DNA of 64,000 bases, taken from the IMG/VR virus record IMGVR_UViG_3300045988_124082. One strand, written 5' to 3'. How positions within the stretch are numbered: position 1 is the first letter of the stretch; each line of letters starts with the position of its first letter. Shown here piece after piece: positions 42,945-62,289 of the stretch. The translations under genes and the position numbers were made by a program. This stretch comes from a virus. The notes beneath the pieces were generated by a model. It searched no databases and was not told where the DNA came from. It saw only the letters and a list, made by a program, of their open reading frames with translations.

Positions 42945-43266
42945 AGAAACGAGAAGAAAAGTACACTTTGGAGATTGTCATGTAGGCGATGTTTTTGGAA
43001 TAGATAAAGATAGTCCTTATGTACGTAGAAAAAACAGCTTATATGATCTTGAACCATCAGATGTATTAAAGGCAAAAGTTATATATGTAGACAAAGAAGA
43101 TTCCTCCATTCGCATAAAGGCTTATGTAAATAATGAAGAGACTCCAAGATTTTCAGGTTGGCTTTACTCTTTGGTAAACAATTCAGGAATATTACTACAT
43201 AGGTCAGATTTGTTTATTGAGGACAATCTCAGATTCTTGTCAAAGAGAAAGAATAACTACTGGTAA
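42934..43266 (+). CDS. C-tail-tagged small protein 6 (family B)
   Basis: GTG start. KVHFGDCHVGDVF. Ends ..KRKNNYW*. Confidence 0.65.
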   Translation: MQSRETRRKVHFGDCHVGDVFGIDKDSPYVRRKNSLYDLEPSDVLKAKVIYVDKEDSSIRIKAYVNNEETPRFSGWLYSLVNNSGILLHRSDLFIEDNLRFLSKRKNNYW

Positions 43267-43280
43267 AGAGAGGTGTAAGG

Positions 43281-43598
43281 ATGGAAGAGAAAAGAAAAGT
43301 ATGCTTCGATGATTGCGAAGTTGGCATGTTTTTTAGGATCGATAAAGACTGTCCATGGATGTATGACAATGAGTGGATGGATGGTTTTGATACATTGACA
43401 AACGCAGATGAGTTAAAAGTTAAAATTATCGATAAAGATGCTGATGATAGCAGTGTTGAGATAGAACTTTGGGCAGATGGTCAAAAGACACATATAACAG
43501 ATTGGCTCTATCAGTTTGAAGACGATCCAGAAGACAGAATTGGAAATAACCTTGAGTTTATATTAAAGAGGAAAAATAGAAAAAATAACTATTGGTGA
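43281..43598 (+). CDS. C-tail-tagged small protein 7 (family B)
   Basis: KVCFDDCEVGMFF. Ends ..NRKNNYW*. Confidence 0.7.
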   Translation: MEEKRKVCFDDCEVGMFFRIDKDCPWMYDNEWMDGFDTLTNADELKVKIIDKDADDSSVEIELWADGQKTHITDWLYQFEDDPEDRIGNNLEFILKRKNRKNNYW

Positions 43599-43608
43599 GG
43601 TGGTGTAA

Positions 43609-43869
43609 ATGGATAATGAATTAAAAATTGGAATGAAGTTCTTAGAAGTAAAAACCGGAATTGTCTGGAAGCTTACAGATATGAATTTTATACAAGAAGG
43701 GTTTTATATAATAGACAAATCATTGTGTTTTCAAGCTGTACGTATAAATACAGACGAGGATGATGTATGGAGAAGTACATCGTCAATGATACCTAAGACA
43801 ATGCTCGAAAGAAGATTGAAAAAAGGCGAATGGAAACAAATAAACAATAGAAAAAACAATTACTATTGA
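43609..43869 (+). CDS. C-tail-tagged small protein 8 (family D)
   Basis: LKIGMKFLEVKTGIVWKLT. Ends ..NRKNNYY*. Confidence 0.7.
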   Translation: MDNELKIGMKFLEVKTGIVWKLTDMNFIQEGFYIIDKSLCFQAVRINTDEDDVWRSTSSMIPKTMLERRLKKGEWKQINNRKNNYY

Positions 43870-43891: not shown

Positions 43892-45025
43892 ATGGAGGAT
43901 TTAAGATTAGTAACAACAGAAGAATTTAATGGGGTTGATTGCAACTTTTACAAGGCAGATAGTAACATGTGGATGACAAGAGGACAGATTGGTAAAGCTT
44001 TAGGGTATCACAATCCAAGGATTGCAATCGGGAAAATACATACTGCACATAGAGATAGACTTGATCCACTTTCAGTTGATACCAATTTAGTGTCTACTGA
44101 TGGAAAAGAATATTCTACTTATATATATAATGAAAGAGGCATCTTTGAAATCTGTAGATGGTCAAGACAACCAAAAGCAAATGAATTTATGGATTGGGTA
44201 TGGGACATTATAGAAGCATATAGACGTGGAGAATTCCAGAGAAAGCCTAGGGAAACAGCCATTACACCTGTTGAGAAATTCTTAGATGGAATGCAGAATA
44301 TGTTCTTAGAAATGAGAGAAGAGAACAAAATATTCAAAGATACTGTGTTGAAGATTTTAGAATCTCAGCAAGGACAGGAAGTACAAAAACCTGTTGAAAA
44401 ACTTGAAGCTCAAGAGAAAACTGTTAATCAAGTAAAAACAAAACCAGCTGTTAAGTCAGTTGTTAAGATTGAAAACCCTAGATTAGACACTTGGAAGTTC
44501 GAAATTGGTGCTAAAGCAGCCTATATTGTTTTTAATGGAAATGAATATAAAACAAAAGGAAAAGTATTCTCAGCATGTTATTCAAAAATGAAGAATGTGT
44601 ATGGAATTTGTTGGTCACAGGAAAATAAAGAATACAGGAGAGCTTTCGGATTAGAATCTCAGAGAGGTAGATTAAGTACTTTAGATGTTGTATTCAATGA
44701 TGAAAATTTGAAAGACCTGTTTGACAGTATTCTTGATGGAATATATGAAAACACAAAAAGAAAAGCTATAAAGAGAAATACGGGAACCAATCCAGAAAAA
44801 GATTGGCAATATTATAAAGAAAAGATTCAAAAACTTTGTGAGCAAACAGGCAACAAAAGTTTAGGCGGAAGCTCTATTTACTCAGGAATCATTAGAAAGA
44901 TGGATGTAGATTGGAGCAAGTATGAAACAAACAAAAAGAAAACTGAATTAGTTAAAAAATATCCAGAGTTGTTTGCAGAGTTCTCTAAGACAGCGGATAA
45001 ATATTTAGAGGAGAAGTTAAAATGA
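43892..45025 (+). CDS. Bro-N domain protein
   Basis: N-terminal EEFNGVDCNFYKADSNMWMTRGQIGKALGYHNPRIAIGKIHTAHRDRL follows the Bro-N pattern. The C-terminal 250 aa are unassigned. Confidence 0.6.
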   Translation: MEDLRLVTTEEFNGVDCNFYKADSNMWMTRGQIGKALGYHNPRIAIGKIHTAHRDRLDPLSVDTNLVSTDGKEYSTYIYNERGIFEICRWSRQPKANEFMDWVWDIIEAYRRGEFQRKPRETAITPVEKFLDGMQNMFLEMREENKIFKDTVLKILESQQGQEVQKPVEKLEAQEKTVNQVKTKPAVKSVVKIENPRLDTWKFEIGAKAAYIVFNGNEYKTKGKVFSACYSKMKNVYGICWSQENKEYRRAFGLESQRGRLSTLDVVFNDENLKDLFDSILDGIYENTKRKAIKRNTGTNPEKDWQYYKEKIQKLCEQTGNKSLGGSSIYSGIIRKMDVDWSKYETNKKKTELVKKYPELFAEFSKTADKYLEEKLK

Positions 45026-45141
45026 GTATTAAAATTTTAGGACTTCGTCAAGATTGCTACAAAGTAATCATTGATGGAGTCCTTTTTAAATTCCCAACAG
45101 AACAAGAGTTTTTGGAATTCTTAGAGGAGATTGAGATATGA
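45022..45141 (+). CDS. small ORF (39 aa), translationally coupled on both sides
   Basis: Own translation MSIKILGLRQDCYKVIIDGVLFKFPTEQEFLEFLEEIEI*. ATGA overlaps at both ends. Confidence 0.4.
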   Translation: MSIKILGLRQDCYKVIIDGVLFKFPTEQEFLEFLEEIEI

Positions 45142-45416
45142 GTTTTAGATTTGAAGTAGGTCAAGAGCTGGAATTACACAATAACTTGACGGATATGAAA
45201 GTTTACATGAGATCGGGAACGGTTGTTCGTATCTTAAGTAGAAAAACAAGAATGGATCATACACAAGGGGTTGAGAGAAATCGTTACAAGATTGCATATG
45301 AATTTCATACAAGCTTTTTGGAGATTGGAGATGGTTGTTACCACTGTGGAAAAGACTTTATCTGGGAAGAAGATTTAATTAGAGCTGTCGGTCAACGGAA
45401 GAATAATTATTATTAA
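45138..45416 (+). CDS. C-tail-tagged small protein 9 (singleton family E)
   Basis: Ends ..QRKNNYY*. The body is unlike families A-D. Confidence 0.65.
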   Translation: MSFRFEVGQELELHNNLTDMKVYMRSGTVVRILSRKTRMDHTQGVERNRYKIAYEFHTSFLEIGDGCYHCGKDFIWEEDLIRAVGQRKNNYY

Positions 45417-45428
45417 GAGGTGATTAAA

Positions 45429-45698
45429 ATGTGGAAAGTCGGAGATAGAGTCGTAATTATTCAAGATGCTAGAAGAAATTTAGAATCCTTTGTAGGTTTC
45501 AAGGGAACGGTTAACTTTGCAAGTAGAGATGAGATAAGTGTAGTTTTTGACAAATATGTAAACGGTCATGACTTACTAGGGGATTGTAAAAAAGGTTATG
45601 GATGGTTTTTGTCCTCAGACGGAGAGAACGAAAACGAAGCCGAAGCAAATGGAATGAGAGTCAAGAAAATTAACAACAGAAAAAATAATTATTGGTAG
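45429..45698 (+). CDS. C-tail-tagged small protein 10 (family A)
   Basis: MWKVGDRVVI behind GAGGTG. Ends ..NRKNNYW*. Confidence 0.7.
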   Translation: MWKVGDRVVIIQDARRNLESFVGFKGTVNFASRDEISVVFDKYVNGHDLLGDCKKGYGWFLSSDGENENEAEANGMRVKKINNRKNNYW

Positions 45699-45707
45699 GT
45701 GATAGGA

Positions 45708-45980
45708 ATGTGGGAAAAAGGTACAAGAGTTAGAATTATAAAATCAAACAGACTTATGACGCAAGTTGGTATCATGGGCACTGTGGTTTACATACATAAG
45801 GATGGAAATGATCGTTTTATAGTAGAGTTTGACGAACCTATGGATGGGAATTATATGACTACTTTTTGTGATTGCAAACCGAAGTGTTGGTGGTGGTTTG
45901 ATAATGTTCCGGGGAGAGTTGTTGAAACAGATGGTATAACAATTGAAAAAATAGGAAAAAGAAAAAACAATTATTACTAA
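45708..45980 (+). CDS. C-tail-tagged small protein 11 (family A)
   Basis: MWEKGTRVRII. Ends ..KRKNNYY*. Confidence 0.7.
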   Translation: MWEKGTRVRIIKSNRLMTQVGIMGTVVYIHKDGNDRFIVEFDEPMDGNYMTTFCDCKPKCWWWFDNVPGRVVETDGITIEKIGKRKNNYY

Positions 45981-45992
45981 GGCGGTGAGAAC

Positions 45993-46340
45993 ATGTGGGA
46001 AATTGGAGATAGAGTGGCTGTTACAGACTTAGGCAAAGTCTCTCAAGAGAATTATGGAATTGAAATAAAGATTGGATACAAGGGAACTATTATCAACTTT
46101 TTAAAGATTGATGTCCCATGGAATTCTGATGAGATAATTAAATTCTTAGTAGAGTTTGACGAACCCATGGATGGACATGATGGAAATGATTTCGGTAAAA
46201 TAAGTGGGAAATCGGGACACTGTTGGTGGATGCGTGGAAACCAAGATAGTAATTTAATCAAATGGCGAGATAGCCGGGATTGTGAAGCACCATTAATATG
46301 TAAGAAAATCATGAAGAAAAGGAAAAACAATTTTTACTAA
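45993..46340 (+). CDS. C-tail-tagged small protein 12 (family A)
   Basis: MWEIGDRVAV..VEFDEPMDGHDG..GHCWW. Ends ..KRKNNFY*. Confidence 0.7.
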   Translation: MWEIGDRVAVTDLGKVSQENYGIEIKIGYKGTIINFLKIDVPWNSDEIIKFLVEFDEPMDGHDGNDFGKISGKSGHCWWMRGNQDSNLIKWRDSRDCEAPLICKKIMKKRKNNFY

Positions 46341-46355: not shown

Positions 46356-46946
46356 ATGTTTAAAGTTGGAGATAGTATTAAGATAACAAAAACAAAGATG
46401 GTTAATGATGGAATATTGGTAATAAATGATCGTTATATTCGGTTATGGTCTGTTTATGGAAAAGTAAAAAATCAACAGGAAGACGAAAAAGGTACTAAAA
46501 GCTTTATTGTAACTTTTGATAGTTGGAAAGAATTATTGGATAATGGGGATGGGGTATATAAAGAAGCGACAAATGAATGTGGATTAAATATAGTTATGTC
46601 AGAGAAAGGTGAAATATTTGATTCGGATGGAAAAGTTGTTGTTTGGTGTGAAAAACACTTACCATGGAAAGAGATAGAGGAAGGGGAAACCTATAAAATA
46701 AAACCAAATTCACGCTTATGTAAAGAAGTATTAGAATGGGTTGAATATAAATCAAAAGCTGAATTAAAAATAGACCCGAATGAACTGACTGCTATGGTTA
46801 AACACACAAATATTGCCCAGGGGCTTCTCTTAGCAGTTGTTGTTCCTCTTGTCAATGGTAAGAGAGTTACTGAACGTGGTTGGGAATTGTTTGAAAACAA
46901 TTATTCAGATCAACTTAACATAGATGACAGCATTGAAGAGTTATAA
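46356..46946 (+). CDS. hypothetical protein with family-A-like N-terminus, untagged
   Basis: MFKVGDSIKITK.., 196 aa, ends ..DDSIEEL. Confidence 0.5.
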   Translation: MFKVGDSIKITKTKMVNDGILVINDRYIRLWSVYGKVKNQQEDEKGTKSFIVTFDSWKELLDNGDGVYKEATNECGLNIVMSEKGEIFDSDGKVVVWCEKHLPWKEIEEGETYKIKPNSRLCKEVLEWVEYKSKAELKIDPNELTAMVKHTNIAQGLLLAVVVPLVNGKRVTERGWELFENNYSDQLNIDDSIEEL

Positions 46947-47147: not shown

Positions 47148-47513
47148 ATGAAAGTAGTAATCGCAGAAAACAGATTAGAGGTAGTAACAGGAATCAAAAA
47201 GGCAGACTTCGACAAACAGGTAACAGACATGACTGTTAAAGATGACAAAGGAAATGTGACATTTAAGTTAAAAGTTGGAGAACAGCCTAACATTTCAGTA
47301 CTTGGTTTAACTTGCAACACAACTGTTGACAAAGAGTTAGCGGTAACAATGATTCTTCCAATGGAAACAGATGTTGAAGAAATCAAAATCAAGTATGGTA
47401 AGGCTTTAGTAGCAGCTGAAAAGAATCTGAAAGTAATTGCTGACAGAATCGTAGCAGATACAGAAGCAGTTGATGGAATCTTTGCAGACACAGAAGAAGC
47501 AACAGAAGCCTAG
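47148..47513 (+). CDS. hypothetical protein, paralogue 1 of 48018..48362
   Basis: 121 aa with strong RBS AAAAGGAGAAAC. About 55% identical by eye to the 114-aa paralogue. Confidence 0.6.
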   Translation: MKVVIAENRLEVVTGIKKADFDKQVTDMTVKDDKGNVTFKLKVGEQPNISVLGLTCNTTVDKELAVTMILPMETDVEEIKIKYGKALVAAEKNLKVIADRIVADTEAVDGIFADTEEATEA

Positions 47514-47569: not shown

Positions 47570-47596
47570 AGGACGTCTCCCAAGGGCGTCCTTTTT
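47570..47596 (+). terminator. rho-independent terminator
   Basis: AGGACGtctcccaagggCGTCCT followed by TTTT. Confidence 0.65.
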
Positions 47597-47641: not shown

Positions 47642-47881
47642 ATGATGATCAATGTAACATTAGCAACAACAGCAGGTAAAAGTCTTGTAACAGTAGAAGG
47701 AAACCAGACTCCATCACAAGTACTTGAAGAGAACAGCGTAGCAACAACAGGAGCTACTGTATCACTCAATATGAGACCACTTGCAGATAATGAAAAAGGT
47801 AAAACTTTTGAAGAATTAGGATGCACAGATGGTGATTCCGTAATGTTATCAGCAGTTGTAAAAGCAGACTCAGCAATGTAG
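47642..47881 (+). CDS. 79-aa ThiS/MoaD/ubiquitin-like (beta-grasp) candidate, copy 1
   Basis: The size and the C-terminal pattern ..LGCTDGDSVMLSAVVKADSAM parallel ThiS ..VQDGDQILLFQVIAGG. No terminal GG. Confidence 0.4.
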   Translation: MMINVTLATTAGKSLVTVEGNQTPSQVLEENSVATTGATVSLNMRPLADNEKGKTFEELGCTDGDSVMLSAVVKADSAM

Positions 47882-48017: not shown

Positions 48018-48362
48018 ATGAAAGTATCATTAAAAGAAAACGCATTAGAAATCAACACAGAAATCAAAAAAGCTGACTTTGACAAGAAAGTAAGCAACAT
48101 GACAGTAACAAACAAAGATGGTGTACCAACATTTGTTTTACGCTGTGGAAGAGAGGGAGAAATTTCTCAGTTAGGACTTACATGTAACTCTACAATTGAC
48201 AAGAACTTAGCTGTAACAATTGTGTTGCCTCCAGAAACAAAAATGGAAGACATCAAAGTTGAATATGGTAAAGCCCTTGTAAATGCAGAAAAGGGATTAA
48301 AAGTCCTTGCTGGGAGAATTGAAGCCGATACGAAAGCTATTGATGCGATTTTTGCGGAATAG
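48018..48362 (+). CDS. hypothetical protein, paralogue 2 of 47148..47513
   Basis: 114 aa with RBS AAAAGGAGAAC. Confidence 0.6.
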   Translation: MKVSLKENALEINTEIKKADFDKKVSNMTVTNKDGVPTFVLRCGREGEISQLGLTCNSTIDKNLAVTIVLPPETKMEDIKVEYGKALVNAEKGLKVLAGRIEADTKAIDAIFAE

Positions 48363-48559: not shown

Positions 48560-48799
48560 ATGATGATCAATGTAACATTAGCAACAACAGCAGGTAAAAG
48601 TCTTGTAACAGTAGAAGGAAACCAGACTCCAAGTGAAGTGTTAGCTGAAAATAATGTAGCAACAACAGGAGCTACAATCTCTATGAATATGAGACCATTA
48701 AGTGTAGCTGAATTAACTGATACATTTGAAGAGCTTGGATGTAATGATGGTGATTCTATCATGTTATCAGCTGTAGTTAAAGCCGATTCTGCTTTCTAG
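48560..48799 (+). CDS. 79-aa ThiS/MoaD/ubiquitin-like (beta-grasp) candidate, copy 2
   Basis: The first 24 codons and the RBS are identical to copy 1, and the rest has diverged. Ends ..GDSIMLSAVVKADSAF. Confidence 0.4.
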   Translation: MMINVTLATTAGKSLVTVEGNQTPSEVLAENNVATTGATISMNMRPLSVAELTDTFEELGCNDGDSIMLSAVVKADSAF

Positions 48800-48901
48800 T
48801 TCTAGCAGGTAAAGAGAGAAGAACATGAAGAGCGTAGGTGTCATAGCCTACGTTCTTATTTTTTACTTATTAATTATATTCATAAGAAAGGAAAATACAT
48901 T

Positions 48902-50626
48902 ATGGAAGAAAGAAAATTTAAAACAAATGACTACGTGGTAGTAAAGAATTGGGATGAATTGGTTGAAGAATATGGATTGGTTGATCCCGAATCTGTTAGA
49001 GAACAGATGAGGAATGATGAGGATTGTTATTGGTCAGAAGAAGAGATTAATGAATACAATCCAGAAATCATTAATGTTCCATGGGGAGCAAGAAAAGCAA
49101 TGATTGATGAACTTGTAACTATGGGATTGATGAAGGTCAAAGAATATGGAGAAGATGGAAGTGTCCAGCTGGAAAGCGATACTTACATTGACAGTATTAT
49201 CCCAGAAGAGATTTTACAGCCTGTAAGCGAAGATGAGGTTAAGAATTATATCTTTTGGCTTAATAAAAAAGATGATGATTTTGTAATGCAGGACTACGAT
49301 TTTGCTCAAGCAAATGGATTATTAACTTATGTAGGATTGGTCAATGGAAGTATTGATTTTATCGGAGGAAACAAAGGTAATGAATTAATTGCTTATTTCT
49401 ATGCAGCATCAATTTTAAGATCAATTGATTTTAATGAGGGAGTTACAGAATATCTAAGCCATTGTCATGAAGTTAGTGTTCATACATTTGACCATTTTTA
49501 CACTGACAGAAAATCACATTTGCAGATTGTAGCGATAAAAGATGTTTCTGAGGATGGAGAAGAAGAACTTGTTAATATGTGGACAGAAAGAGGCTGGGAA
49601 GAAGTTGAATTCCACAACGATAAAGTTTTTAAGGTGTTTACTCATCCTGAGCAGAAAGGAACCACAATTTTCTTAAATGGAGAAAAAGAAGATTATAAAA
49701 AAGACTTTGAAGCTTATGAACTGATCATGCAGATTGTTAGCCATGTTTATGGAGATACAATGCAGGATGTTTTAGAAGTTGTTAGCAATAGAGATAGATC
49801 AGAAGCTATGAATATGATCCGTGATATTTTCTCAGAAGCGGATAAGCAGTATGTGAAAATCAAAAACAAAATTAATATTGAAAACTTCCTAAAGGTTGCA
49901 TCTAAAGGTCAGCAGAAACATTTAGAACGAGAAGTTCAGAATAATCAGGACAGAGTTAATAGCTATAAAGATAATCTCAGACACTCTCTTAAAACATTAA
50001 GAGAGTCACAAGAAAGACTCTTCGGATATTTACATATGAAAGATGATTCCCAGTTCAATGAAGTAAGAGAAATGTTAAACATGATGGGTGATGATTTAAG
50101 TGATTTTAGGTGTAATCCTAGCGGTGATTGGTTTAGCTTTGCAATCGTTCAGCCATTGTTATATTGGGATGATGATATTTACGAAAGAAACTTTGATGAT
50201 GAATACTTTGAAGAAGAGGCTGAATATGAAAAGACGAAAAAAGTATTCGACAAAATCTTTAAGACAAGAGAATACACTTTGTATCTACAGCAAGCAATAA
50301 TGATTGACTTGGTCAATAATAAACCAGTTGCAATGAGAGATTATAATTATACAAATGATATGTATATTCCTAATCCACATTTCCATGAGTTTAACTGTTG
50401 GGGAGCAAATGAAGCAAATTTAATTGAAGCGATTTCAAACAGAGATTATATGTCAATTTTCAATCTTGTTAGATCAGCTGTCGCTGGAATTTCTTTATAT
50501 GATACTTCTGTAGTAGGAGCTTTCTTTAATTATTGTGAAGACAGATTTACAAATAAAAAATGTCTTAAAGTTCCAGGAAGAGAAGAATTTATTTCATTCA
50601 AAGAAGCAAGAGCATTGGAGGATTAA
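48902..50626 (+). CDS. 574-aa hypothetical protein, first gene of the JAB/E1-like operon
   Basis: The stop lies 3 nt before the JAB gene. Near the C-terminus, IPNPHFHEFNCWGANE loosely resembles an E2 HPN..C active-site region (weak). Confidence 0.5.
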   Translation: MEERKFKTNDYVVVKNWDELVEEYGLVDPESVREQMRNDEDCYWSEEEINEYNPEIINVPWGARKAMIDELVTMGLMKVKEYGEDGSVQLESDTYIDSIIPEEILQPVSEDEVKNYIFWLNKKDDDFVMQDYDFAQANGLLTYVGLVNGSIDFIGGNKGNELIAYFYAASILRSIDFNEGVTEYLSHCHEVSVHTFDHFYTDRKSHLQIVAIKDVSEDGEEELVNMWTERGWEEVEFHNDKVFKVFTHPEQKGTTIFLNGEKEDYKKDFEAYELIMQIVSHVYGDTMQDVLEVVSNRDRSEAMNMIRDIFSEADKQYVKIKNKINIENFLKVASKGQQKHLEREVQNNQDRVNSYKDNLRHSLKTLRESQERLFGYLHMKDDSQFNEVREMLNMMGDDLSDFRCNPSGDWFSFAIVQPLLYWDDDIYERNFDDEYFEEEAEYEKTKKVFDKIFKTREYTLYLQQAIMIDLVNNKPVAMRDYNYTNDMYIPNPHFHEFNCWGANEANLIEAISNRDYMSIFNLVRSAVAGISLYDTSVVGAFFNYCEDRFTNKKCLKVPGREEFISFKEARALED

Positions 50627-50629: not shown

Positions 50630-51595
50630 ATGAGAAAAATTAGAATTGAAGAATTAGATGCACAGAGATTAGTACAAGAAGTGATAGCGAAAGCTATCAC
50701 TTCTATTGGTTTAACCCCAGAAAAATTACAGATGGAAATTAATCCTAATGTAAAACTTAAAGAAGAAGAGAAAATTGAGATTGCTTTTTCAGAAATGGCA
50801 GAAAAGAAAATGTATTATCTCATTCACGAATGTGAAAAAGAAATTGGTTGGCATGGACTTGTCAGTCGAAGCGAAAATGGATTCTATGTAGAAGACATTA
50901 TTGTATTCCCACAGGAAGTTACAGGAGCTACTGTAACATCAGATGATGAGCTATATCCAACTTGGATGCTTAGTCAGCCAGATGAGATTTACAATAAGAT
51001 TAGATTTCATGGACATTCACATGTAAATATGGCAACAAGTCCAAGTGGTGTAGATGATACGTATCAGGAGCAGATTATTCAACAGTTTATGTCTAGTCCA
51101 CTTGATGAAAATAATTTTTACATATTCGGCATTTTCAACAAAAAGGGAAGCTATTGGTTAAATATTTATGACATTTATAACAATAAATTTTATGAGACAG
51201 ATGATATTAGTTATGTTTTTTATCAGTCAGATGAACAGGCATGGGCTAAAGAACAGATTAAAGAGAATGTAAAAGAAGAAGTAGCTGTAAAAACAAGTGG
51301 ATATTATTCTAATGGATATGGTTATAGAGGCGGTGGATACGGAACAGAAGAGCTGTATGATACTTGGAAAAAGAACTATGATAAAAACAAAGGCAAAGAG
51401 AAGCCAAAAAAAGATGAAGCAGAGTTGCGAAAAGAATTAAGTGGAGCAATTATTGCAGATTTAACACCTCCAAAATGGCATAGTAAATGGAGTAAATGTT
51501 TACAGAGGATGATTAGCTGTGATGAAAGTCTTGATGATTTAATTGAAGAGTATTGTATTACTTATCCAGATTATAGTGGAACAAAAAAGAAATAG
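50630..51595 (+). CDS. JAB/MPN+ (JAMM) metallopeptidase with long C-terminal extension
   Basis: Complete JAMM signature: upstream Glu (IHECEKEIGWHG), then HSH-VNMATSP-S-GV-D, which is HxHx7Sx2D. Confidence 0.7.
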   Translation: MRKIRIEELDAQRLVQEVIAKAITSIGLTPEKLQMEINPNVKLKEEEKIEIAFSEMAEKKMYYLIHECEKEIGWHGLVSRSENGFYVEDIIVFPQEVTGATVTSDDELYPTWMLSQPDEIYNKIRFHGHSHVNMATSPSGVDDTYQEQIIQQFMSSPLDENNFYIFGIFNKKGSYWLNIYDIYNNKFYETDDISYVFYQSDEQAWAKEQIKENVKEEVAVKTSGYYSNGYGYRGGGYGTEELYDTWKKNYDKNKGKEKPKKDEAELRKELSGAIIADLTPPKWHSKWSKCLQRMISCDESLDDLIEEYCITYPDYSGTKKK

Positions 51596-51607
51596 AGGAG
51601 GATGATT

Positions 51608-52285
51608 ATGAATACAAGTAAAGTTTTAGAATTTTTTGATGCACAGACATTAGTTAAAAAACCAGTTCATGTAATTGGATGTGGAGCAATTGGCTCAAAT
51701 GTCGCAGAACAGCTTACAAGATTAGGAGTCTCAGTGATTCATCTCTGGGATTACGATCATGTTGAGCCTAAAAATGTAACTAATCAGATGTTCTTTGATG
51801 GGGATATCGGAAAAGCTAAGGTAGATGCAATTGAAAATTTGTGTAAGTCAATTAATCCACAGATTAAAATAATCAAACATGAAAGAGGGATTGATGATCC
51901 ATATATTCTTACAGGATATGTATTCTTATGTGTAGATAATATTGAGCTTAGAAAGAAAATCGTAGAGGCCAATAAGTTAAATCCAAACTGTATTGCGTTC
52001 TTTGATTTTAGAATGAGACTTACAGATGCACAGCATTATTTTGCTGATTGTTCAGTTAAAGAACAGGTTGAAAACTTAATTGGAACCATGAATTTTACCC
52101 ATGAAGAAGCGGCTGCAGCAACTCCTACAAGTGCTTGTGGAGTGGAATTAAGTGTATGCTATACAGTTAAGAATATTGTTTGTTATGGAATTGCAAATTT
52201 TGTTAACTTTTGCCTAGGGAATGAACCAAAACAGATGATTATTACAGATATGAAGACAATGGATGTGACAGTATTCCCTATGTAA
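51608..52285 (+). CDS. ThiF/MoeB/E1-like adenylyltransferase (minimal, about 225 aa)
   Basis: VHVIGCGAIGSNVAEQLTRLGV (GxGxxG Rossmann) followed by LWDYDHVEPKNVTNQMF (DxDxVxxxNxxRQ-like). Confidence 0.7.
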   Translation: MNTSKVLEFFDAQTLVKKPVHVIGCGAIGSNVAEQLTRLGVSVIHLWDYDHVEPKNVTNQMFFDGDIGKAKVDAIENLCKSINPQIKIIKHERGIDDPYILTGYVFLCVDNIELRKKIVEANKLNPNCIAFFDFRMRLTDAQHYFADCSVKEQVENLIGTMNFTHEEAAAATPTSACGVELSVCYTVKNIVCYGIANFVNFCLGNEPKQMIITDMKTMDVTVFPM

Positions 52286-52288: not shown

Positions 52289-52567
52289 GTGATGATCTTG
52301 ATAGAAGAAAAATATAAAGCGGTACCTAAAAATTATAAGGGGATTGTAAGACTTAAGCCAACAATAGCACGTTTCCGCCCTTATTACCATGCGTATGTTA
52401 AGTTGGAGGAGGGCTATCACTATACGGGTAATCCAGATCACACAGTATACGTTGAGTTGTACAAGACTTATCAAGATTTAACAAACAATGGTAGGTGTAT
52501 AAGGGAAGGCCTTATAGAAGAAAGAAGCTTATATGTTCCAAGAGAACGTAAGAATAATTATTGGTAG
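52289..52567 (+). CDS. C-tail-tagged small protein 13 (family C, VPKGYKG..GNPDH)
   Basis: Starts 3 nt after the E1-like stop (GTG; TTG 52298 is also possible). Ends ..ERKNNYW*. Confidence 0.65.
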   Translation: MMILIEEKYKAVPKNYKGIVRLKPTIARFRPYYHAYVKLEEGYHYTGNPDHTVYVELYKTYQDLTNNGRCIREGLIEERSLYVPRERKNNYW

Positions 52568-52575
52568 GTGAGAAT

Positions 52576-52848
52576 ATGTGGGAAAAAGGTACAAGAGTTA
52601 AGATAATAGGGGGAGCAAAAATCGGCTTAATGGGGACAGTGGTTGTTAAGTGCACAGAAACCCCTGTCAATGACATTAGAGATCGCTTCTTAGTAGAGTT
52701 TGACGAATCCATGGGTGGACATAGTGGAAATGGAGCTTATGAAGGAAAGCGGGGACATTGTTGGTGGTTTGATTATTGTTTAGAAAAGGTTACTATCACA
52801 GATGGCATAAGCATTGAGCAAGTCAAAAGGAAAAATAATTTTTACTAG
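52576..52848 (+). CDS. C-tail-tagged small protein 14 (family A)
   Basis: MWEKGTRVKII..VEFDESMGGHSG..GHCWW. Ends ..KRKNNFY*. Confidence 0.7.
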   Translation: MWEKGTRVKIIGGAKIGLMGTVVVKCTETPVNDIRDRFLVEFDESMGGHSGNGAYEGKRGHCWWFDYCLEKVTITDGISIEQVKRKNNFY

Positions 52849-52861
52849 GGGGGGTGATTAG

Positions 52862-53077
52862 ATGTGGGAAGTTGGTGACAGAGTAGTAGTTAGTAGTGCA
52901 TTTAGGCCTAAAGTGAAAGGGACAGTCATTGCTATAGATGCGGAATCTACAATGCCTGTATTGGTTAAAATAGGTGGAATAGGAACAGGTATGTGGTTCT
53001 ATGAAAATGGTGATGATTTAGTTTGGAGTGACATTACTTGCACACGAGTGAAAAAGAGGAAAAACAATTATTATTGA
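52862..53077 (+). CDS. C-tail-tagged small protein 15 (family A, short)
   Basis: MWEVGDRVVV, 71 aa. Ends ..KRKNNYY*. Confidence 0.7.
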   Translation: MWEVGDRVVVSSAFRPKVKGTVIAIDAESTMPVLVKIGGIGTGMWFYENGDDLVWSDITCTRVKKRKNNYY

Positions 53078-53093
53078 GAAAGGATGATGACAG

Positions 53094-53381
53094 GTGTTTA
53101 AGGTTGGAGATAGGATCGTACTAACAGAAGAAAGCCGTCAAAGCTGCAATATATTTCATGAACATCCGGGAGATACTGCAACGGTTATTGGAGTTTCGAA
53201 AGTATCAAGTAGGTCTGATTATGAATGTGTTTTAGAATTTGATAGACATATTGGTGGACATGATGGGTTAACCGATGCCACAGGCAAGAACGGTCATTGT
53301 GTTATCTATTATTTTGATTCAACACAGTGGGATAAGTATTTTAGGAAAATCCAAAGTAAACGTAAGAATAATTATTATTAA
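53094..53381 (+). CDS. C-tail-tagged small protein 16 (family A)
   Basis: GTG start. MFKVGDRIVL..EFDRHIGGHDG..GHCVIY. Ends ..KRKNNYY*. Confidence 0.65.
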   Translation: MFKVGDRIVLTEESRQSCNIFHEHPGDTATVIGVSKVSSRSDYECVLEFDRHIGGHDGLTDATGKNGHCVIYYFDSTQWDKYFRKIQSKRKNNYY

Positions 53382-53396
53382 GAAAGAGGTGATCGT

Positions 53397-53713
53397 ATGC
53401 CAGAGGATGTAAAGTACCGTCCAGTTCCTAAAGGGTATACAGGTGTTTTTAGGCTAAGAGAAGATACGACGTCCTTAGCCAATGAGTTTTATGGAGCATG
53501 GGGCATTATAGACGACAAATTTTTAATCGATGAAGATTATTATAATGAAGAAAATGAATTTAAGGGAGATCCCGATCATGTAATTCGAGTAAGTTTTTAT
53601 CCTAGCCTTTTAGATCTGCAAAGAGGTGAAATCTTATTAGAGAAGTAGGAAGAGTGTCTGGGACAGAAAAGTATTGTTATATTCCTTTCAAAAGAAAAAA
53701 TAATTACTATTAA
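53397..53713 (+). pseudogene. C-tail-tagged family C member 17, frame-disrupted (or frameshift-dependent)
   Basis: Frame 0 stops at 53648 (..RGEILLEK*). The family-like continuation ..LIREVGRVSGTEKYCYIPFKRKNNYY* is open in the -1 frame from about 53630 to 53713. Confidence 0.55.
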
Positions 53714-53728
53714 GAAAGAGGTAATCAA

Positions 53729-54043
53729 ATGGAAAATAATGGTATATATCCTCCAGTACCTAAGGGATACAAGGGTGTTTTTAGAGTTAGACCTGATATG
53801 ATAGGATCAGATAATATGTTCTATGAAGCATATGGTATTACAGGAAAAGGTATTATAGAAGACATTGATTATTTAGAAGGCCAAGGAGAATTTACAGGAA
53901 ATCCACATCATATAATTAAAGCCATTTTTTATCAAACCTATGAAGACTTAAAGAACAGAGAATGTATGATACAAGGAAGGCCTGTTAAAATAAAAGAACA
54001 CTTACTTTACCCCGTGTCAAACAAGAAGAACAATTACTGGTAG
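53729..54043 (+). CDS. C-tail-tagged small protein 18 (family C)
   Basis: YPPVPKGYKGVFRV..GNPHH. Ends ..NKKNNYW*. Confidence 0.7.
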   Translation: MENNGIYPPVPKGYKGVFRVRPDMIGSDNMFYEAYGITGKGIIEDIDYLEGQGEFTGNPHHIIKAIFYQTYEDLKNRECMIQGRPVKIKEHLLYPVSNKKNNYW

Positions 54044-54053
54044 GTGATTTAAG

Positions 54054-54323
54054 ATGATAGACGCAAAAGATATTAAAGAGGGTATGAAAATTAAGTATAA
54101 TGGTTGGGAATGGACTATAACAAAAGTGTTTGCAAAATATAATAATGTCTTGGATCTTCGGAATGATTGTATTAAAAAAATCATTGATCAAGATAGTTCA
54201 TTGATTTGGATTGAAGCATCGAAGAGACGCTTTGTGCCTGAATCTATGACTATGGAGTGGTTCTTTAAAGAACTGAAATATGGAACAATAAAGATTTTAA
54301 ATCGTAAAAATAATTATTATTGA
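54054..54323 (+). CDS. C-tail-tagged small protein 19 (family D)
   Basis: DIKEGMKIKYNGWEWTITK. Ends ..NRKNNYY*. Confidence 0.7.
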   Translation: MIDAKDIKEGMKIKYNGWEWTITKVFAKYNNVLDLRNDCIKKIIDQDSSLIWIEASKRRFVPESMTMEWFFKELKYGTIKILNRKNNYY

Positions 54324-54329
54324 GGTGAT

Positions 54330-54623
54330 GTGATGTATTTAGAAGACATTAAAGTTGGTCAGAAAGTGAACTATCGAGGTCATTCCTACATAATAACTAA
54401 AAATGTTGTAAAGTATCGGGGAATAATTAGACCTTATTATTCTACATATTCGTATATCAAGGAAAGTACAAATTGTCATAGATCACGAATGTATTTTCGA
54501 AGAGTAGAAAATAAAAATGAACCGATTGATGGATTTTGGTTATTATATGACGAGATTGAAGAAAAAATGGATCGAGGGCTTATTAAATTTTTGAACATGT
54601 CAAAGAAAAATAATTATTATTAA
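54330..54623 (+). CDS. C-tail-tagged small protein 20 (family D)
   Basis: DIKVGQKVNYRGHSYIITK. Ends ..SKKNNYY*. Its stop is 15 nt before the RT start. Confidence 0.7.
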   Translation: MMYLEDIKVGQKVNYRGHSYIITKNVVKYRGIIRPYYSTYSYIKESTNCHRSRMYFRRVENKNEPIDGFWLLYDEIEEKMDRGLIKFLNMSKKNNYY

Positions 54624-54638: not shown

Positions 54639-55940
54639 GTGAATGGAATCAATAAAAGGAAATTAGAACTGTTTATGGATGATCAGCTATGGAGACAAAA
54701 TATTACACATCAGCAAAGCAAAGGTGTACATAGAGATGTATTAAGAATTGTGTGTGATCCAGAATACAAAGCACGGCTTTTAGGAATGATCTGGGATGGT
54801 AATTACAAAATTGCACCTCCGTATGTAGTAGAAATTCCTAAAGACAATGGAAAAGTAAGAGAAGTGTATGTTAATCAGCCAATTGACAGATTTGTTATGA
54901 CACAAATCAATTATGTTTATATGCAATTATATGGTCATATGATTCATCCAAGATGTGTGTCTTATCAGAAAGGAATTGGAGTTAAAAATATCGTAGATGA
55001 TATTTGTATGGAGCTTAAGAAACATCAAGGAGCTGTCGGGTATAAGGTAGACATTAGTAAGTATTTTGACAGTGTAAGCCGTGAGGTCCTTAATGAAATG
55101 ATTGATAAAATTGATACAGGAAGTCCTATTGATCAGATCGTAAGAGATTATTATATGGATGATTGTATCATTGATCAGAAAGGAAATGTTATTGAGAAAT
55201 ACAAAAGTATGACTCAGGGTTGTGCAGTGTCTACATTCTTTGCCAATTGTGTTTTAAAAGATGTTGATGAAGAGTTAAGCAAGATGGATATTATTTATTA
55301 CAGATATTCAGATGATATCTTGATGGTTGGTAAGGATGCAGATAAGGCTTTGAAGATGTTGGGAGAAATGTTAGAAACGAAAGGACTTACATTAAATCCT
55401 AAAAAGGTAGAAACAGTCAGTACAGATCAATGGTTTACATTCTTAGGAGTGCGAATTAATGGACAGAAAAGAAGTTTTTCTGAGAAGAGCTTAAAGGAAT
55501 TTCAGAAACATATTAGAGAATATGTAAATAAGAAAGCAGGAATTGGTAGCGTAAAAGTTGCAATCAGACAAATTAATAAATATCTGTATTTGAATTTCTT
55601 AAGGAATCCTAATGAGTTTGGTTGGGCTGAGTATTTCTTTAGTATTGTGAATGTCGAAGATGATATTAAGACATTAGATATGTGGATTAAAGATACACTC
55701 AGAGGTTTGTATACTGGTAAGAGAGGAAAAGAACAGATAGGTGGACTAGGTGTAAATAAAGTAACTAATGAATGTGGAGTATTAAGAGGGAAGGGCAACA
55801 AAGTAAGTTCAAATTTACGTAAAACAAGAAGTGATAAAGACATTTTAGAAGAAGCAGGATATATCAGTATGAATGAAATGTATCATCAGTTTAGATATAG
55901 CAAAGAATTGTACAGGGCTTCATTGACGGCTTTATCTTAA
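54639..55940 (+). CDS. reverse transcriptase (stand-alone, no endonuclease or maturase domain recognised)
   Basis: RT motifs in order: IPKDNGKVREV, YKVDISKYFDSV, QGCAVSTFFANCVL, YYRYSDDILMVG (YxDD), LTLNPKKVE, FTFLGVRI. GTG start behind GGGGGTG. Confidence 0.85.
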   Translation: MNGINKRKLELFMDDQLWRQNITHQQSKGVHRDVLRIVCDPEYKARLLGMIWDGNYKIAPPYVVEIPKDNGKVREVYVNQPIDRFVMTQINYVYMQLYGHMIHPRCVSYQKGIGVKNIVDDICMELKKHQGAVGYKVDISKYFDSVSREVLNEMIDKIDTGSPIDQIVRDYYMDDCIIDQKGNVIEKYKSMTQGCAVSTFFANCVLKDVDEELSKMDIIYYRYSDDILMVGKDADKALKMLGEMLETKGLTLNPKKVETVSTDQWFTFLGVRINGQKRSFSEKSLKEFQKHIREYVNKKAGIGSVKVAIRQINKYLYLNFLRNPNEFGWAEYFFSIVNVEDDIKTLDMWIKDTLRGLYTGKRGKEQIGGLGVNKVTNECGVLRGKGNKVSSNLRKTRSDKDILEEAGYISMNEMYHQFRYSKELYRASLTALS

Positions 55941-56459
55941 GTGTAACCTAACACGAGGTACTTATGTGAAATGTTATAAGTCAAATCAGATCCCTAGGAT
56001 ACACGGGTGATTCCATGCATGGTTGATAACCAGCATTCCATCAACCCGTTCCTCCCTGGATCTTATCATCATAAAGGAAATTTAGAAACGTGTTATTAAC
56101 ATGAACATAAGAAAGTTACTATGGACGTTGTATGTGAGACAATGGAATTACATATAAGGCGCGTTGAAGCTGCAGGATGACTGGCAATACATTGACCAAG
56201 TCATCCCTGCAGCTCAACCGCTTTATAATCATAAAAGAATAAAGGAACATAGCATGATTGTGAGCATACAAACAAGCTAACATGGGCTAAACATACGAGA
56301 CGTTGAATCATACATAATAAGGGCACAGCTGCCTTATGCAGCGGGAAATTAGTCTCCTCGACAATAATTTCACCGCTGCCACAGGCGTGCGTGCCCTTAT
56401 TAATCATAAACCAATAGAGAAAACATGTCGCCAATGTAGAGTATGTAGAAAGGAAAATC
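55941..56459 (+). ncRNA. hairpin array 1: three long variable hairpins, each followed by conserved ATCATAAA
   Basis: Hairpins at 55988-56063, 56153-56227 and 56317-56400 (75-84 nt, imperfect, unrelated sequences). ATCATAAA at 56068, 56228 and 56403. RNA status and strand are inferred, not shown. Confidence 0.45.
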
Positions 56460-56996
56460 ATGAAAAGTTTATTTAAAGTATTGTATGAGCTGTCACAAGG
56501 AAACACCTTAATGATTAATAGTTGCATGTCTTTTAGAATGACAACTGATCTATACAAAAGACAAGTGAGATTTAAGAAGTATAAGGTTGTTGATCAAGGA
56601 AGCGTAGTAAGTGATGTGACATTGTGTAGTGGAGAGGTTATTGAGTATGATGACTTAATAAAGGAAGGAGATTTAGATTTTATATTACCAATTGAATTAA
56701 ACGAAAAAGAAAATCCATATGAGGTTATTGAATACCTGTATGGATTATTTTATTGTTCAGTTCCTGATAGATCTGCTGTTCAAAAGAAACAGAATTTTAT
56801 AGCAAAAGGATTAAATGATTTTGGGGCAAATGATTTTACAGGAATGAGAAGAAGTGAAATTCAGCCATTGTTAGAACTCTATGTGTTACTCGCTGGAATG
56901 AAAGGATGGATCACTTGGAAAGATGATAAGTTGTTCTTTTGGAAAGGTGAGCATAAGAGTTTGTATATATATAGAAAATGGATTTTAGGTTATTAG
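56460..56996 (+). CDS. hypothetical protein
   Basis: 178-aa ORF with RBS AGAAAGGAAAA. No motif recognised. Confidence 0.55.
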   Translation: MKSLFKVLYELSQGNTLMINSCMSFRMTTDLYKRQVRFKKYKVVDQGSVVSDVTLCSGEVIEYDDLIKEGDLDFILPIELNEKENPYEVIEYLYGLFYCSVPDRSAVQKKQNFIAKGLNDFGANDFTGMRRSEIQPLLELYVLLAGMKGWITWKDDKLFFWKGEHKSLYIYRKWILGY

Positions 56997-57013
56997 GAAA
57001 GGAAGAACGTAAA

Positions 57014-57775
57014 ATGAATGTAGAAAAGAGTTTGGAAAAAGCAGGAGTAGACACAAAGAAATATCCTTCATTAGCTATGCAGAATATTTTAGGATATCAA
57101 GGGAAAGCGTTTGCAGAAAATTCATACCTGTATAGAAAGATCATGGGAGATGGGCATGTGTTTAATCCTTATATACACAGAAGATGGCTTCCATATCAGT
57201 TTATGAATGCTGTCCATTGGACAAGACAGTATTATGCAGAGACTATTGGTTATGTAAAGATGCTTGAAAAAGAATTGATGCGTGGCAATAATGTAGATAA
57301 TTGGAAATATATGTACGATAAATTTGGAAAAGAGCTTAATGCTTTATATACACTCTCAAAAAGAGATAAAAAAGCGTATAAAGAAAGATGGGCTGCTTTT
57401 GGAAGATTAGAAATTTTGAAATATTTCTCTCAAGGGTTTGATTGTGTAGGGATAAATCAAAATACATTTTTGGAAATGAAAAATTTATTAGCGGATGAAA
57501 GATTTGAAGCTGAACGATATTGGCGATATCCTAATTGTTTATTGTATAAACGGCCACAATTTAGAAAAGATTTGGTAACAACAACTTTCCATTCAGGAAT
57601 TTATTTTACATTAAAACATATTATGATGTTTGATTATGAAAAATTACATATGTCTTCATCCCAAAAAGAAAGCCTAAAACGGATTAGAGAAGATTTAATT
57701 AACGGAGATTTCAATTATGAGCAGGCTTTTACAATTATTGAAGATTACGTAGCAAGATATTACAATCCAAGATAG
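57014..57775 (+). CDS. hypothetical protein
   Basis: Start moved to MNVEKSLEK behind AGGAAAGGAAG. 253 aa, Trp/Tyr-rich. Confidence 0.55.
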   Translation: MNVEKSLEKAGVDTKKYPSLAMQNILGYQGKAFAENSYLYRKIMGDGHVFNPYIHRRWLPYQFMNAVHWTRQYYAETIGYVKMLEKELMRGNNVDNWKYMYDKFGKELNALYTLSKRDKKAYKERWAAFGRLEILKYFSQGFDCVGINQNTFLEMKNLLADERFEAERYWRYPNCLLYKRPQFRKDLVTTTFHSGIYFTLKHIMMFDYEKLHMSSSQKESLKRIREDLINGDFNYEQAFTIIEDYVARYYNPR

Positions 57776-59397: not shown

Positions 59398-60192
59398 ATG
59401 GCAACAGAGTTTGACAAACGAATGAAAGCTTATGAATGTGTCTCAAGACAGTACTTAACAAGAAGAGTACCAGTTGCAATTAGGGTAGATGGAAAGGCAT
59501 TTCATACATTCACTAGAGGGTTTCAGAAACCATTTGATGAAGTGCTTAGCAACACAATGCAAGCCACAATGATGAAAATGTGTAGACAGATTCAGGGTTG
59601 TGTGTTTGCTTACACACAGAGTGATGAAATTACATTTATTCTTATCGATTATCAGAAGCTAAATTCTGATGGCTGGTTTAACTACCGTACTGATAAGATG
59701 TGTAGCATTGCAGCGAGTATGGCTACTATGGAGTTCAATAAGGCTTTTAGTGCTTTTGTTTATGGATTTAAGGTAAACAAGGGAGAAGACATATCAAGCG
59801 AAGATATGGAAGTGCTTAAGGCCTATGAGAAATCTAAGGAACGTGGAGCTATGTTTGATGCTAGAGCGTTCTCAATTCCAAAAGAAGAAGTCACAAACTT
59901 AATCTATTGGAGACAACAGGATGCTATGAGAAATGCAGTTCAGATGGTTGGACAAGCATTTTATTCTCACAAAGAACTTCAGGGTGTTAATTGTGAAATG
60001 CTTAAAGAAATGTTACTGGCTGATAAGGGAATTGAATGGGATAAGATTCCTGTGAAATACCAGAGAGGCAGTTGTTGTGTCAAGGTTGATGGTGAATGGA
60101 CTATTGACAATAACATTTCTATCTTCAGAGGTAGTGACAGAGAGCAAATTGATAAGCTTGTGTTTGTTGAGAGTGAAGAGGATCAGGAGTGA
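59398..60192 (+). CDS. Thg1-like protein (tRNA-His guanylyltransferase family, 3'-5' nucleotidyl polymerase)
   Basis: N-terminal VPVAIRVDGKAFHTFTRGFQKPFDEVLSNTM..CVFAYTQSDEITFIL matches the Thg1 family core (R.DG+.F..FT..F.KP.D...YxQSDEIS). Confidence 0.75.
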   Translation: MATEFDKRMKAYECVSRQYLTRRVPVAIRVDGKAFHTFTRGFQKPFDEVLSNTMQATMMKMCRQIQGCVFAYTQSDEITFILIDYQKLNSDGWFNYRTDKMCSIAASMATMEFNKAFSAFVYGFKVNKGEDISSEDMEVLKAYEKSKERGAMFDARAFSIPKEEVTNLIYWRQQDAMRNAVQMVGQAFYSHKELQGVNCEMLKEMLLADKGIEWDKIPVKYQRGSCCVKVDGEWTIDNNISIFRGSDREQIDKLVFVESEEDQE

Positions 60193-62139: not shown

Positions 62140-62289
62140 GGGGACATAGCTTAATAGGTAAAGCAAAACTACATTCTTCCATAAAGAACTTAAAACTAAA
62201 ATTTTCATATTAAATATAAACATTTTGTACCTCCCTATTGTAATAAAATAACACTTATATTTATGTGGGTTCGAATCCCACTGTCCCCA
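62140..62289 (+). ncRNA. interrupted tRNA-like gene (canonical acceptor, D and T arms; about 75-nt AT-rich insert in place of the anticodon region)
   Basis: GGGGACA..TGTCCCC-A acceptor, GCTT-AATAGGTA-AAGC D arm, GTGGG-TTCGAAT-CCCAC T arm. The only anticodon-like hairpin is TTCT-TCCATAA-AGAA (CAT, with C33) at 62174-62188. Confidence 0.4.

Follow-up and report, generated by a model that had tools for sequence, protein, structure and literature searches.

Arrays of small phage genes with a shared, lineage-specific C-terminal tail around a conserved ubiquitin-like and reverse transcriptase module

Why should eight small genes, coding for proteins of ~70-105 amino acids (aa) from at least three unrelated families, all end in nearly the same short peptide, and why should they lie in a row between a gene for a ThiF/E1-like adenylating enzyme and a gene for a reverse transcriptase (RT)? 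This arrangement is found at positions 52289-54623 of the viral record IMGVR_UViG_3300045988_124082, of which we analysed a stretch of 64,000 nucleotides (nt; hereafter the window). We show here that the tail is a protein-level, modular and lineage-specific feature, which recurs in other phages with a different sequence in each, and that it is probably a docking or address label, as judged from its shape and behavior. No known counterpart of this tag system was found in the literature that we searched; tail-sharing arrays of small phage proteins were not described there either, one 2026 preprint on UG27 RTs not being covered.

In the window, 20 genes end in the peptide [KR]KNN[YF][YW] directly before the stop codon, and these genes fall into three blocks on the + strand. 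Block 1 (40730-43869) has eight tagged genes, of families A and B plus a singleton, with one untagged open reading frame (ORF; 42413-42808); block 2 (45138-46340) has four tagged genes, between a Bro-N gene (43892-45025) and the ubiquitin-like (Ubl) module described below; and the third is the 52289-54623 block itself. A count of [KR]NN[YFW][YFW]-stop over the window gave 20 occurrences, every one of them closing an ORF, as compared to 0.01-0.05 (about 0.03) in shuffled sequence, where the maximum was 1. The codons of the tail vary synonymously (Lys, AAA 12 / AAG 8; Asn, AAC 10 / AAT 10 and AAC 5 / AAT 15; Arg, five codons), indicating that the tail is selected as protein and not as DNA, and ruling out a conserved DNA element as its cause.

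The eight genes of the third block are closely packed. Gene 1 (52289-52567, starting at GTG 52289 or ATG 52292) belongs to family C (VPKNYKG..GNPDH) and ends in ERKNNYW; its ratio of nonsynonymous to synonymous substitution rates (dN/dS) is 0.31 against the relative L130. It is followed by three family A genes, at 52576-52848 (gene 2, tail KRKNNFY), 52862-53077 (gene 3, a short member, KRKNNYY) and 53094-53381 (gene 4, KRKNNYY), then by two further members of family C, at 53397-53713 (gene 5, FKRKNNYY) and 53729-54043 (gene 6, NKKNNYW), and finally by two genes of family D, at 54054-54323 (gene 7, NRKNNYY) and 54330-54623 (gene 8, SKKNNYY). Gene 5 reads into its tail only past a frameshift, a run of A near 53629 having lost 1 nt, and eight close relatives carry this gene as an intact 105-codon ORF. 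The gap between the E1 stop and gene 1 is 3 nt, those between successive genes are 8, 13, 16, 15, 15, 10 and 6-9 nt, and gene 8 ends 15 nt upstream of the RT start (54639); every gap contains a purine-rich, Shine-Dalgarno-like stretch. Since no terminator-like site was found on the + strand between 50704 and 58000, a single transcript from the 574-aa gene of the Ubl module to the RT is plausible from the sequence; good terminator-like hairpins lie further upstream, at 47570-47592 and 48828-48857. The original prediction, made from the letters alone, had described eight tail-tagged and probably co-transcribed genes, of a family C plus further A and D members, wedged between the E1-like and RT genes with 3 and 15 nt to spare; our analysis confirms that these genes are real, together with their coordinates and family content (three of C, three of A and two of D), with the fifth gene broken here by the 1-nt deletion.

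With their tails removed, the 20 tagged proteins of the window comprise eight members of family A, five of B, three of C and two of D, the others being singletons, and profile-profile comparison of the trimmed families A, B, C and D detected no similarity between them (probability <1%). No domain could be recognized in families B-D. For family A, a search of a 5.8-billion-protein database showed how strictly the tail is kept: among the 120 matches listed, it is present in 116 of 116 full-length homologues, even in relatives whose bodies are only 30% identical, and the remaining 4 look truncated. The tail of the listed homologues ends in YY, FY or YW and never in FW or FF, so that at least one Tyr is always present.

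The E1-like gene upstream of the third block is part of a conserved cassette. We searched IMG/VR with an E1 alignment, obtaining 80 loci (designated by handles such as L130), and counted as separate lineages those whose E1 proteins are <85% identical to one another. The gene order 121-aa / Ubl / 574-aa / JAB / E1 / RT recurs in about 50 viral lineages: of 50 lineages with both JAB and E1, a 574-like gene is present in 46, the Ubl/121-aa genes in 47, and an RT a short way downstream in 44. The lineages closest to the window have an RT of the UG27 class and many others a retron-like one (RT_II-A being the best-scoring PADLOC model, 148-196 bits), so that two RT classes occupy the same slot. E1 and RT stand 5-17 nt apart in several lineages and 300-600 nt apart in the retron-type ones, with unrelated genes in between in a few, a pattern by which the cassette and the RT look like one conserved unit. 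Only in the window's clade does the junction hold tagged genes (2-8 of them; 7-8 genes over 2.3 kb here), and since E1 and RT mostly follow each other closely elsewhere, the eight genes appear to be an insertion peculiar to this clade. The view that the locus is a single island and not a set of scattered paralogues is thereby strongly supported, with the cassette order kept in some 50 lineages and arrays placed around or inside it in nine. In L163, L167, L184, L200, L204, L214 and L216 a retron-like RT follows E1 after a non-coding gap of 300-600 nt, which could encode an msr/msd-type RNA.

The tails of these other arrays follow the same design with entirely different residues. For each locus we scored small ORFs with a common 6-mer in their last 12 residues (BLOSUM62 score ≥17). 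Nine cassette lineages carry shared-tail arrays of 6-21 small ORFs each (6-20 in the eight other than that of the window), against at most 6 in internal-segment controls, and 0 of 70 locus-strands from unrelated viral contigs exceeded 4. Besides the tail of the window, the dialects include K.FN[GS]LE and FE[DE]EL[ML].LLGG (each with or without an extension), ..L[ML][DE]FL[KE]., ..[SN]LE[ED][IV]L, ..[NG][IVL][ED]E[LI]I (20 ORFs), ..[ND][VLI][DS]DLI and ..D[IL]S[SA]LL. Arrays are found upstream as well as downstream of the cassette, and L214 has three of its tagged genes between JAB and E1. Dialects differ sharply among phages of the same gut metagenome whose E1 and RT are 50-60% identical, and E1 remains 45-68% identical between lineages in which the dialect changes completely. 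Family-A-like bodies were found in 6 of the 9 tag-bearing lineages, each with the local tail (KNNYY, DISSLL, NLEEIL, NISELI or DLDDLI), and in 2 of 41 tag-free ones. Thus, one tail is common to the unrelated bodies of a genome and is exchanged for another on homologous bodies elsewhere, as expected of an address label with a co-evolving reader. A degenerate DNA pattern of the window's tail, searched on IMG/VR, gave mostly single chance matches and arrays only in contigs of the same clade. We considered a role of the invariant Lys at position -5 as an acceptor lysine and set it aside as a general explanation, most other dialects having no Lys. One of the nine lineages, L150, appears to have a single paralogous family and not unrelated bodies with a common tail; in this genome (GCA_965347025.1), at least ten tandem paralogues of ~87 aa, ending in ..F.EF...INN[FLYI], occupy 17737-20678 downstream of a UG27 module.

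The arrays turn over rapidly around stable neighbors. Compared with a relative whose 574-aa protein is 65% identical, the tagged genes are 33-65% identical and under purifying selection (dN/dS 0.22-0.43), and E1 and RT are 92% identical with dN/dS of 0.05. The tagged genes and the 574-aa protein are the fast-evolving set (dN/dS 0.19-0.43 together). Copy number differs even among genomes >95% identical elsewhere, with 4, 5 or 8 tagged genes in the middle block and 7 or 8 in the E1-RT block; the most distant members of the clade have 3 and 2 in the latter. The expectation that the number of tagged genes should vary while E1, JAB and RT stay fixed was therefore borne out, with 8, 7, 3 or 2 genes found in the E1-RT slot.

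All genes of the cassette lie on the + strand of the window. The first, coding for a 121-aa protein (47148-47513), is found upstream of the Ubl gene in most cassette lineages and has a paralogue here at 48018-48362. The 79-aa Ubl-like protein (47642-47881) ends in ..VVKADSA-M and its paralogue (48560-48799) in ..VVKADSA-F; across 27 lineages the C-terminus reads ..VVK[AST][DE][SN]A or ..ANGG, after which come 0-3 variable residues, a pattern that suggests a Ubl precursor. The family has weak matches to the beta-grasp families TUG-UBL1, DUF2604, YukD and SAMP2, and hhalign aligns it in register with ubiquitin at an E-value of 0.002 yet only 14% probability. The 574-aa protein (48902-50626) occupies the place in the operon where an E2 would be expected. 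Its family came to at least 553 representative clusters in an exhaustive search; the protein is conserved in its C-terminal ~250 aa and has an invariant His493 and Cys499 (PNPH...YNCWG). We make no claim on an impression that the order of its C-terminal secondary-structure elements is like that of E2 enzymes. Neither sequence nor profile searches matched it to Pfam, NCBIfam, PHROGs, PADLOC or PDB, its AlphaFold2 model from a 5-sequence alignment was poor (predicted local distance difference test score, pLDDT, 55.6) and gave no usable Foldseek match, and by hhalign its N-terminus (..FKTNDYVVV..) is unrelated to family A.

The assignments of the two enzymes in the original prediction held up well. 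The 321-aa JAB/JAMM metallopeptidase (50630-51595), which has a C-terminal extension, keeps its catalytic E71, H129-S-H131, S139 and D142 invariant in 37 sequences; the profile of these sequences matches RPN11 (E 1.7e-4), and Prok-JAB is matched by 5 members. Residues ~158-237 weakly resemble the PUR-alpha-like proteins of Borrelia (PDB 3nm7 and 3n8b, E 0.04-0.08), possibly by chance. The 227-aa E1-like enzyme (51602-52285) scores 77.7 bits with Pfam ThiF (cutoff 28.1), and its family, of 1,681 database clusters with a typical length of 225 aa, has as invariants GCGxxGS (GCGAIGS), Cys179 and ..KNITNQMF. The canonical E1 motif for ATP is D-x-D-x-V-x-x-S-N-L-x-R-Q; the Arg of N-x-x-R-Q is not present here, an invariant Asn aligning with the Arg of UBA5, MoeB and ThiF. 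The enzyme is related to MccB, PaaA and UBA5, with only the Rossmann core alignable to MccB. A microcin C/MccB type of pathway, in which a short precursor peptide with a terminal Asn is encoded beside an MccB-like E1 that has an N-terminal peptide clamp, was considered and rejected, given tagged proteins of 70-115 aa that end in Tyr or Trp, an E1 of 227 aa, and an alignment confined to the Rossmann fold. A short E1, 30% identical and annotated as 'thiamine biosynthesis protein', also occurs in cultured ~227-kb phages of Xanthomonas and Erwinia; in Xanthomonas phage PhiXhv-12 (L231, PV764601.1) it lies at 143445-144128 with an 892-aa ORF directly upstream and no RT nearby.

The structure of family A was modeled with AlphaFold2 from a deep alignment, yielding an all-beta barrel (mean pLDDT 80.4) in which the last four residues fall below 50 (gene 2), so that the tail is probably flexible in the model. 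The top Foldseek matches are the CAP-Gly domains of p150Glued, CLIP-170 and TBCB (probability 0.96-1.0, template modeling score 0.56-0.66, E 0.04-0.5), and hhalign against the p150Glued CAP-Gly domain, with its sequence entered by hand, gave 79% probability and E 1.6e-5. Among 58 family A members, Pfam found SH3_12 in 33 and CAP_GLY in 2 at E 0.04, the latter below threshold. Like CAP-Gly domains (p150Glued, CLIP-170), family A is a small beta-barrel with the pattern GDRV..G.GTV..V.FD..G..G...G.F/W, and in CLIP-170, too, a CAP-Gly domain is combined with an aromatic C-terminal tail; unlike them, it has no GKNDG motif, which is replaced by G-H-x-G, and CAP-Gly domains are eukaryotic and cytoskeletal. 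The family A bodies of other lineages have H-x-C..C..G-[HY]-G-W at the position of GKNDG, a possible metal site that is unchanged by the tail dialect. Because GKNDG is missing, Pfam support is weak and the fold match is modest, we describe family A as a CAP-Gly-like beta-barrel and not as a CAP-Gly domain; a search of the literature for CAP-Gly in phages returned nothing relevant. An untagged 196-aa ORF between block 2 and the Ubl module (46356-46946, +) begins MFKVGDSIKITK.. as family A does.

On the other side of the third block, the RT (54639-55940, +) matches the PADLOC model RT_UG27 over positions 2-419 of 420 (E 1.3e-164, 546 bits). A retron reading of the window's locus was rejected. 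A diversity-generating retroelement, which would have a template/variable repeat pair close to the RT with the variable copy at the 3' end of a target gene, was rejected as well, there being no long direct repeat at the RT flank and the RT classing as UG27, as was a group II intron, with no Rfam group II match at E≤1, a TIGR04416 score of 124 bits against a cutoff of 300, and only 15 nt upstream of the RT. The RT is followed on the + strand by a structured non-coding region of 519 nt (55941-56459) whose fold (-164.6 kcal/mol, z -7.74) shows three long hairpins with an inverted repeat, a AATCATAAA-like sequence standing after each hairpin, and then by genes matching the UG27-associated clusters 346 (56460-56996; PADLOC RTas346, E 6.3e-14) and 337 (56978-57775; RTas337, E 2.4e-10). 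UG27 systems are known from ~1,450 gut-phage genomes, with a three-hairpin RNA and genes of clusters 346 and 337 (Mestre et al. 2022, PMC9226505), and we take 55941-56459 as the UG27-associated RNA, as it fits that description. The locus thus resembles the published systems in its full-length RT match, three-hairpin region, both partner genes and phage genome; it differs in that here, and in related lineages, the UG27 module stands directly downstream of a Ubl/JAB/E1 cassette. Neighbors of ThiF, JAB or ubiquitin-like type and tagged arrays are not mentioned in PMC9226505, and no phage Ubl/JAB/E1 cassette coupled to an RT was described in the literature searched. The RT is not peculiar to the island: its class, UG27, and its partner genes are those already published, and such RTs also occur in Bacteroides phage BS-TP1 and one fecal contig with no E1, JAB, 574 or tagged genes within 10 kb.

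The window is part of the genome of a tailed gut phage, of ~115-134 kb with ~35% G+C. Its - strand block (1-34 kb) carries tape measure, portal and terminase genes, and early/middle genes occupy the + strand from ~35 kb. Nine near-identical contigs come from one metagenome and additional relatives from elsewhere; a close relative was absent among 50,697 deposited phage genomes (megablast and tblastn with the region, the 574-aa protein and family A as queries). A few kb downstream of the RT module lies a Thg1-like gene (tRNA-His guanylyltransferase family; 59398-60192, +), kept in L130, L133 and L135, with Band_7 and P22 antirepressor-like genes nearby. A 150-nt match to the tRNA model (62140-62289, +, 43.7 bits), for which ARAGORN made no call, may be an intron-containing or otherwise interrupted tRNA. 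On the - strand, a full-length ROOL RNA (27357-27968; Rfam RF03087, 305 bits) lies inside a cluster of seven tRNA genes (27025-28474), and a group I intron match (24072-24404; RF00028, 62.5 bits) overlaps the start of the ORF at 24367-25386, suggesting an intron-split gene.

Taken together, these results suggest that the arrays are fast-turnover accessory cargo that gathers around and inside a conserved phage supermodule, and that in the window's clade one such array was inserted into the normally tight junction between E1 and RT. The tail would dock all tagged proteins onto one common, co-evolving and phage-encoded reader, most likely a fast-evolving part of the Ubl module such as the 574-aa protein or the C-terminal region of JAB. 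The tagged proteins would then be clients of the module, either substrates or substrate-recruiting adaptors for the attachment or removal of the module's own Ubl, and not substrates of E1. We tentatively favor a reader within the adjacent module, because arrays repeatedly nest there and the 574-aa protein and the tagged genes evolve at similar rates. It is also conceivable, if rather doubtful, that in many gut phages the cassette is a ubiquitin-like tagging machine coupled to the RT, and that some lineages have supplied it with a library of exchangeable small binding proteins, plugged in by the C-terminal peptide of the lineage, that steer it to different host proteins, for example those of defense.

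Several points weigh against a reader in the adjacent module. Our tail-pattern search of IMG/VR exposed a variant, IMGVR_UViG_3300029610_000357 (L056 / L138), that has no Ubl/574/JAB/E1 block and yet keeps at least 18 intact tagged genes and the RT. The loss extends from the gene that closes block 2 to gene 2 of the third block and came about by recombination between two family A genes, which left a chimeric family A gene at the junction; gone are the 196-aa ORF, the two pairs of 121- and 79-aa genes, those for the 574-aa protein, JAB and E1, and tagged gene 1 of the third block. Searches with the 574-aa protein and E1 did not find the lost genes elsewhere on its 130-kb contig. Conversely, about 41 cassette lineages have no tag enrichment within 10 kb. 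Tags and cassette are therefore not strictly interdependent. The original prediction had named as its refutation arrays without an E1/JAB/RT neighbor, or the reverse, at chance rates, and the variant, which lacks E1 and JAB and retains the RT, answers to part of this. In addition, all tag-bearing loci were found through the E1 search and within ±10 kb, which leaves cassette-free phages outside the sample; adjacency could reflect only an early-gene region shared by related phages; and in some dialects 1-12 residues follow the motif, so that the tail is not always a free C-terminus. Both the docking role of the tail and the identity of its reader are inferred.

Other partners for the tail were weighed against a reader in the module. 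The E1-like enzyme itself might adenylate the aromatic C-termini, making the tagged proteins activated or conjugated species of the MccB or Ubl kind; the array starts 3 nt past its stop, its kin include MccB and PaaA as well as UBA5, and one other lineage has a ..LLGG tail, with or without a short extension, that resembles a Ubl C-terminus. However, the cassette has its own Ubl-like C-terminus, conserved across lineages, as the expected substrate of E1 and JAB; E1 is conserved (dN/dS 0.05) while tags may be basic-aromatic, acidic-aliphatic or GG; and tags persist in the variant lacking E1. Bulky Tyr/Trp termini are, to our knowledge, unlike any ThiF-family protein substrate. Because of the dedicated Ubl, and because E1 is nearly invariant across chemically unrelated tags, we consider this very unlikely, and the idea that E1 acts on ..RKNNYY tails is probably incorrect, as the module's own Ubl is conserved while tag dialects change completely. 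An unlikely but serious alternative is that the family A barrel reads the tail, so that the tagged proteins would assemble head to tail or inhibit themselves without any part of the Ubl module. The known ligands of CAP-Gly domains include C-terminal tails in ..EEY/F, which the dialects ..EELI, ..DDLI and ..EEIL resemble; the family A tail always ends in an aromatic residue, CAP-Gly domains head the Foldseek results, hhalign gives 79% probability, and family A is concentrated in tag-bearing lineages (6/9 vs 2/41). On the other hand, the Foldseek E-values are only 0.04-0.5 and CAP_GLY is found in 2/58 members at E 0.04, the hhalign query was entered by hand, and the apparent metal site that replaces GKNDG stays constant across the tail dialects.

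A partner outside the island is fairly unlikely but again a serious rival: the tail could dock on a host factor, as a degron or adaptor site of the Clp/Lon type or a mimic of a host docking peptide, with no link to the cassette. Bacterial degrons and docking tails are usually short flexible C-terminal peptides, such as ssrA, the basic tail of MuA and the acidic-hydrophobic tail of the single-stranded DNA-binding protein (SSB); dialects could track different hosts, and the persistence of tags without the cassette in one variant, like the many cassette lineages without tags, agrees with this. Against such a partner stand the arrays nested on both sides of and inside the cassette in nine lineages, compared with 0/70 controls, and the dialects that differ between phages of the same gut metagenome whose E1 and RT are 50-60% identical. 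Many small proteins with one label might also point to a signal for packaging or ejection, loading them into the virion for co-injection; the cargo-loading peptides of encapsulins are C-terminal, and encapsulin shells have the HK97 fold. This is highly improbable for genes that sit in the early/middle + strand block together with Bro-N, RT and antirepressor genes, apart from the structural genes of the - strand at 1-34 kb, and with no link to capsid genes. Finally, tandem arrays with recombination between members, including chimeric genes in L001 and L056, could have left the tail as a functionless relic of gene conversion or duplication among paralogues. This we find scarcely credible, since the tail codons vary freely under invariant amino acids and the tail is kept on bodies 30% identical and by families A-D, which are not detectably homologous.

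If the tail is indeed an address label, it would represent a new way for phages to organize small early proteins, with dozens of fast-evolving proteins sent to one partner, and the 6-residue peptide would be a direct experimental handle on that partner. Independently of the tags, the Ubl/JAB/E1 cassette has a wide distribution among uncultured phages, most of them from the gut, with an RT of either class almost always next to it, which suggests that phages, and not only their hosts, may use ubiquitin-like chemistry. For UG27 RTs, whose function was still open in 2022, this supplies a concrete genetic context.

Several known systems offer comparisons. The order of a small Ubl-like protein, a larger protein, JAB and ThiF/E1 is that of bacterial Ubl operons (Bil-type, Bub, and Cap2/Cap3 of the cyclic-oligonucleotide-based antiphage signaling system, CBASS), and as in precursors trimmed by JAB, the phage Ubl has a conserved C-terminus with a short variable extension, next to a JAB with intact catalytic residues. 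Unlike these operons, the cassette is phage-encoded and not part of a host defense island, its E1 is minimal (225 aa) and without the canonical Arg, a protein of 450-580 aa with an invariant His/Cys pair takes the place of a recognizable UBC-fold E2, an RT almost always comes next, and tail-tagged arrays flank it; the PADLOC and NCBIfam models of bacterial Ubl operons gave nothing above threshold for the phage cassette.

The tail itself resembles C-terminal address systems such as encapsulin cargo peptides, the clients of SSB tails, and the ssrA and MuA degrons, in which a short flexible C-terminal peptide sits on unrelated bodies and the carriers are often encoded beside the machinery that reads them. 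What sets it apart is its occurrence in tandem early phage arrays, with rapid turnover of copy number and wholesale replacement of the peptide between lineages. The ankyrin/PRANC-F-box adaptors of poxviruses, too, are many fast-evolving paralogous binding modules that fit into a ubiquitin-type machine by one conserved C-terminal element; here the element is 5-7 residues and not a domain, and the machine would be phage-encoded, so that the likeness is one of analogy only. If the tagged proteins do form a library of adaptors, they would play in phages the part that arrays of F-box/PRANC adaptors play in eukaryotic viruses.

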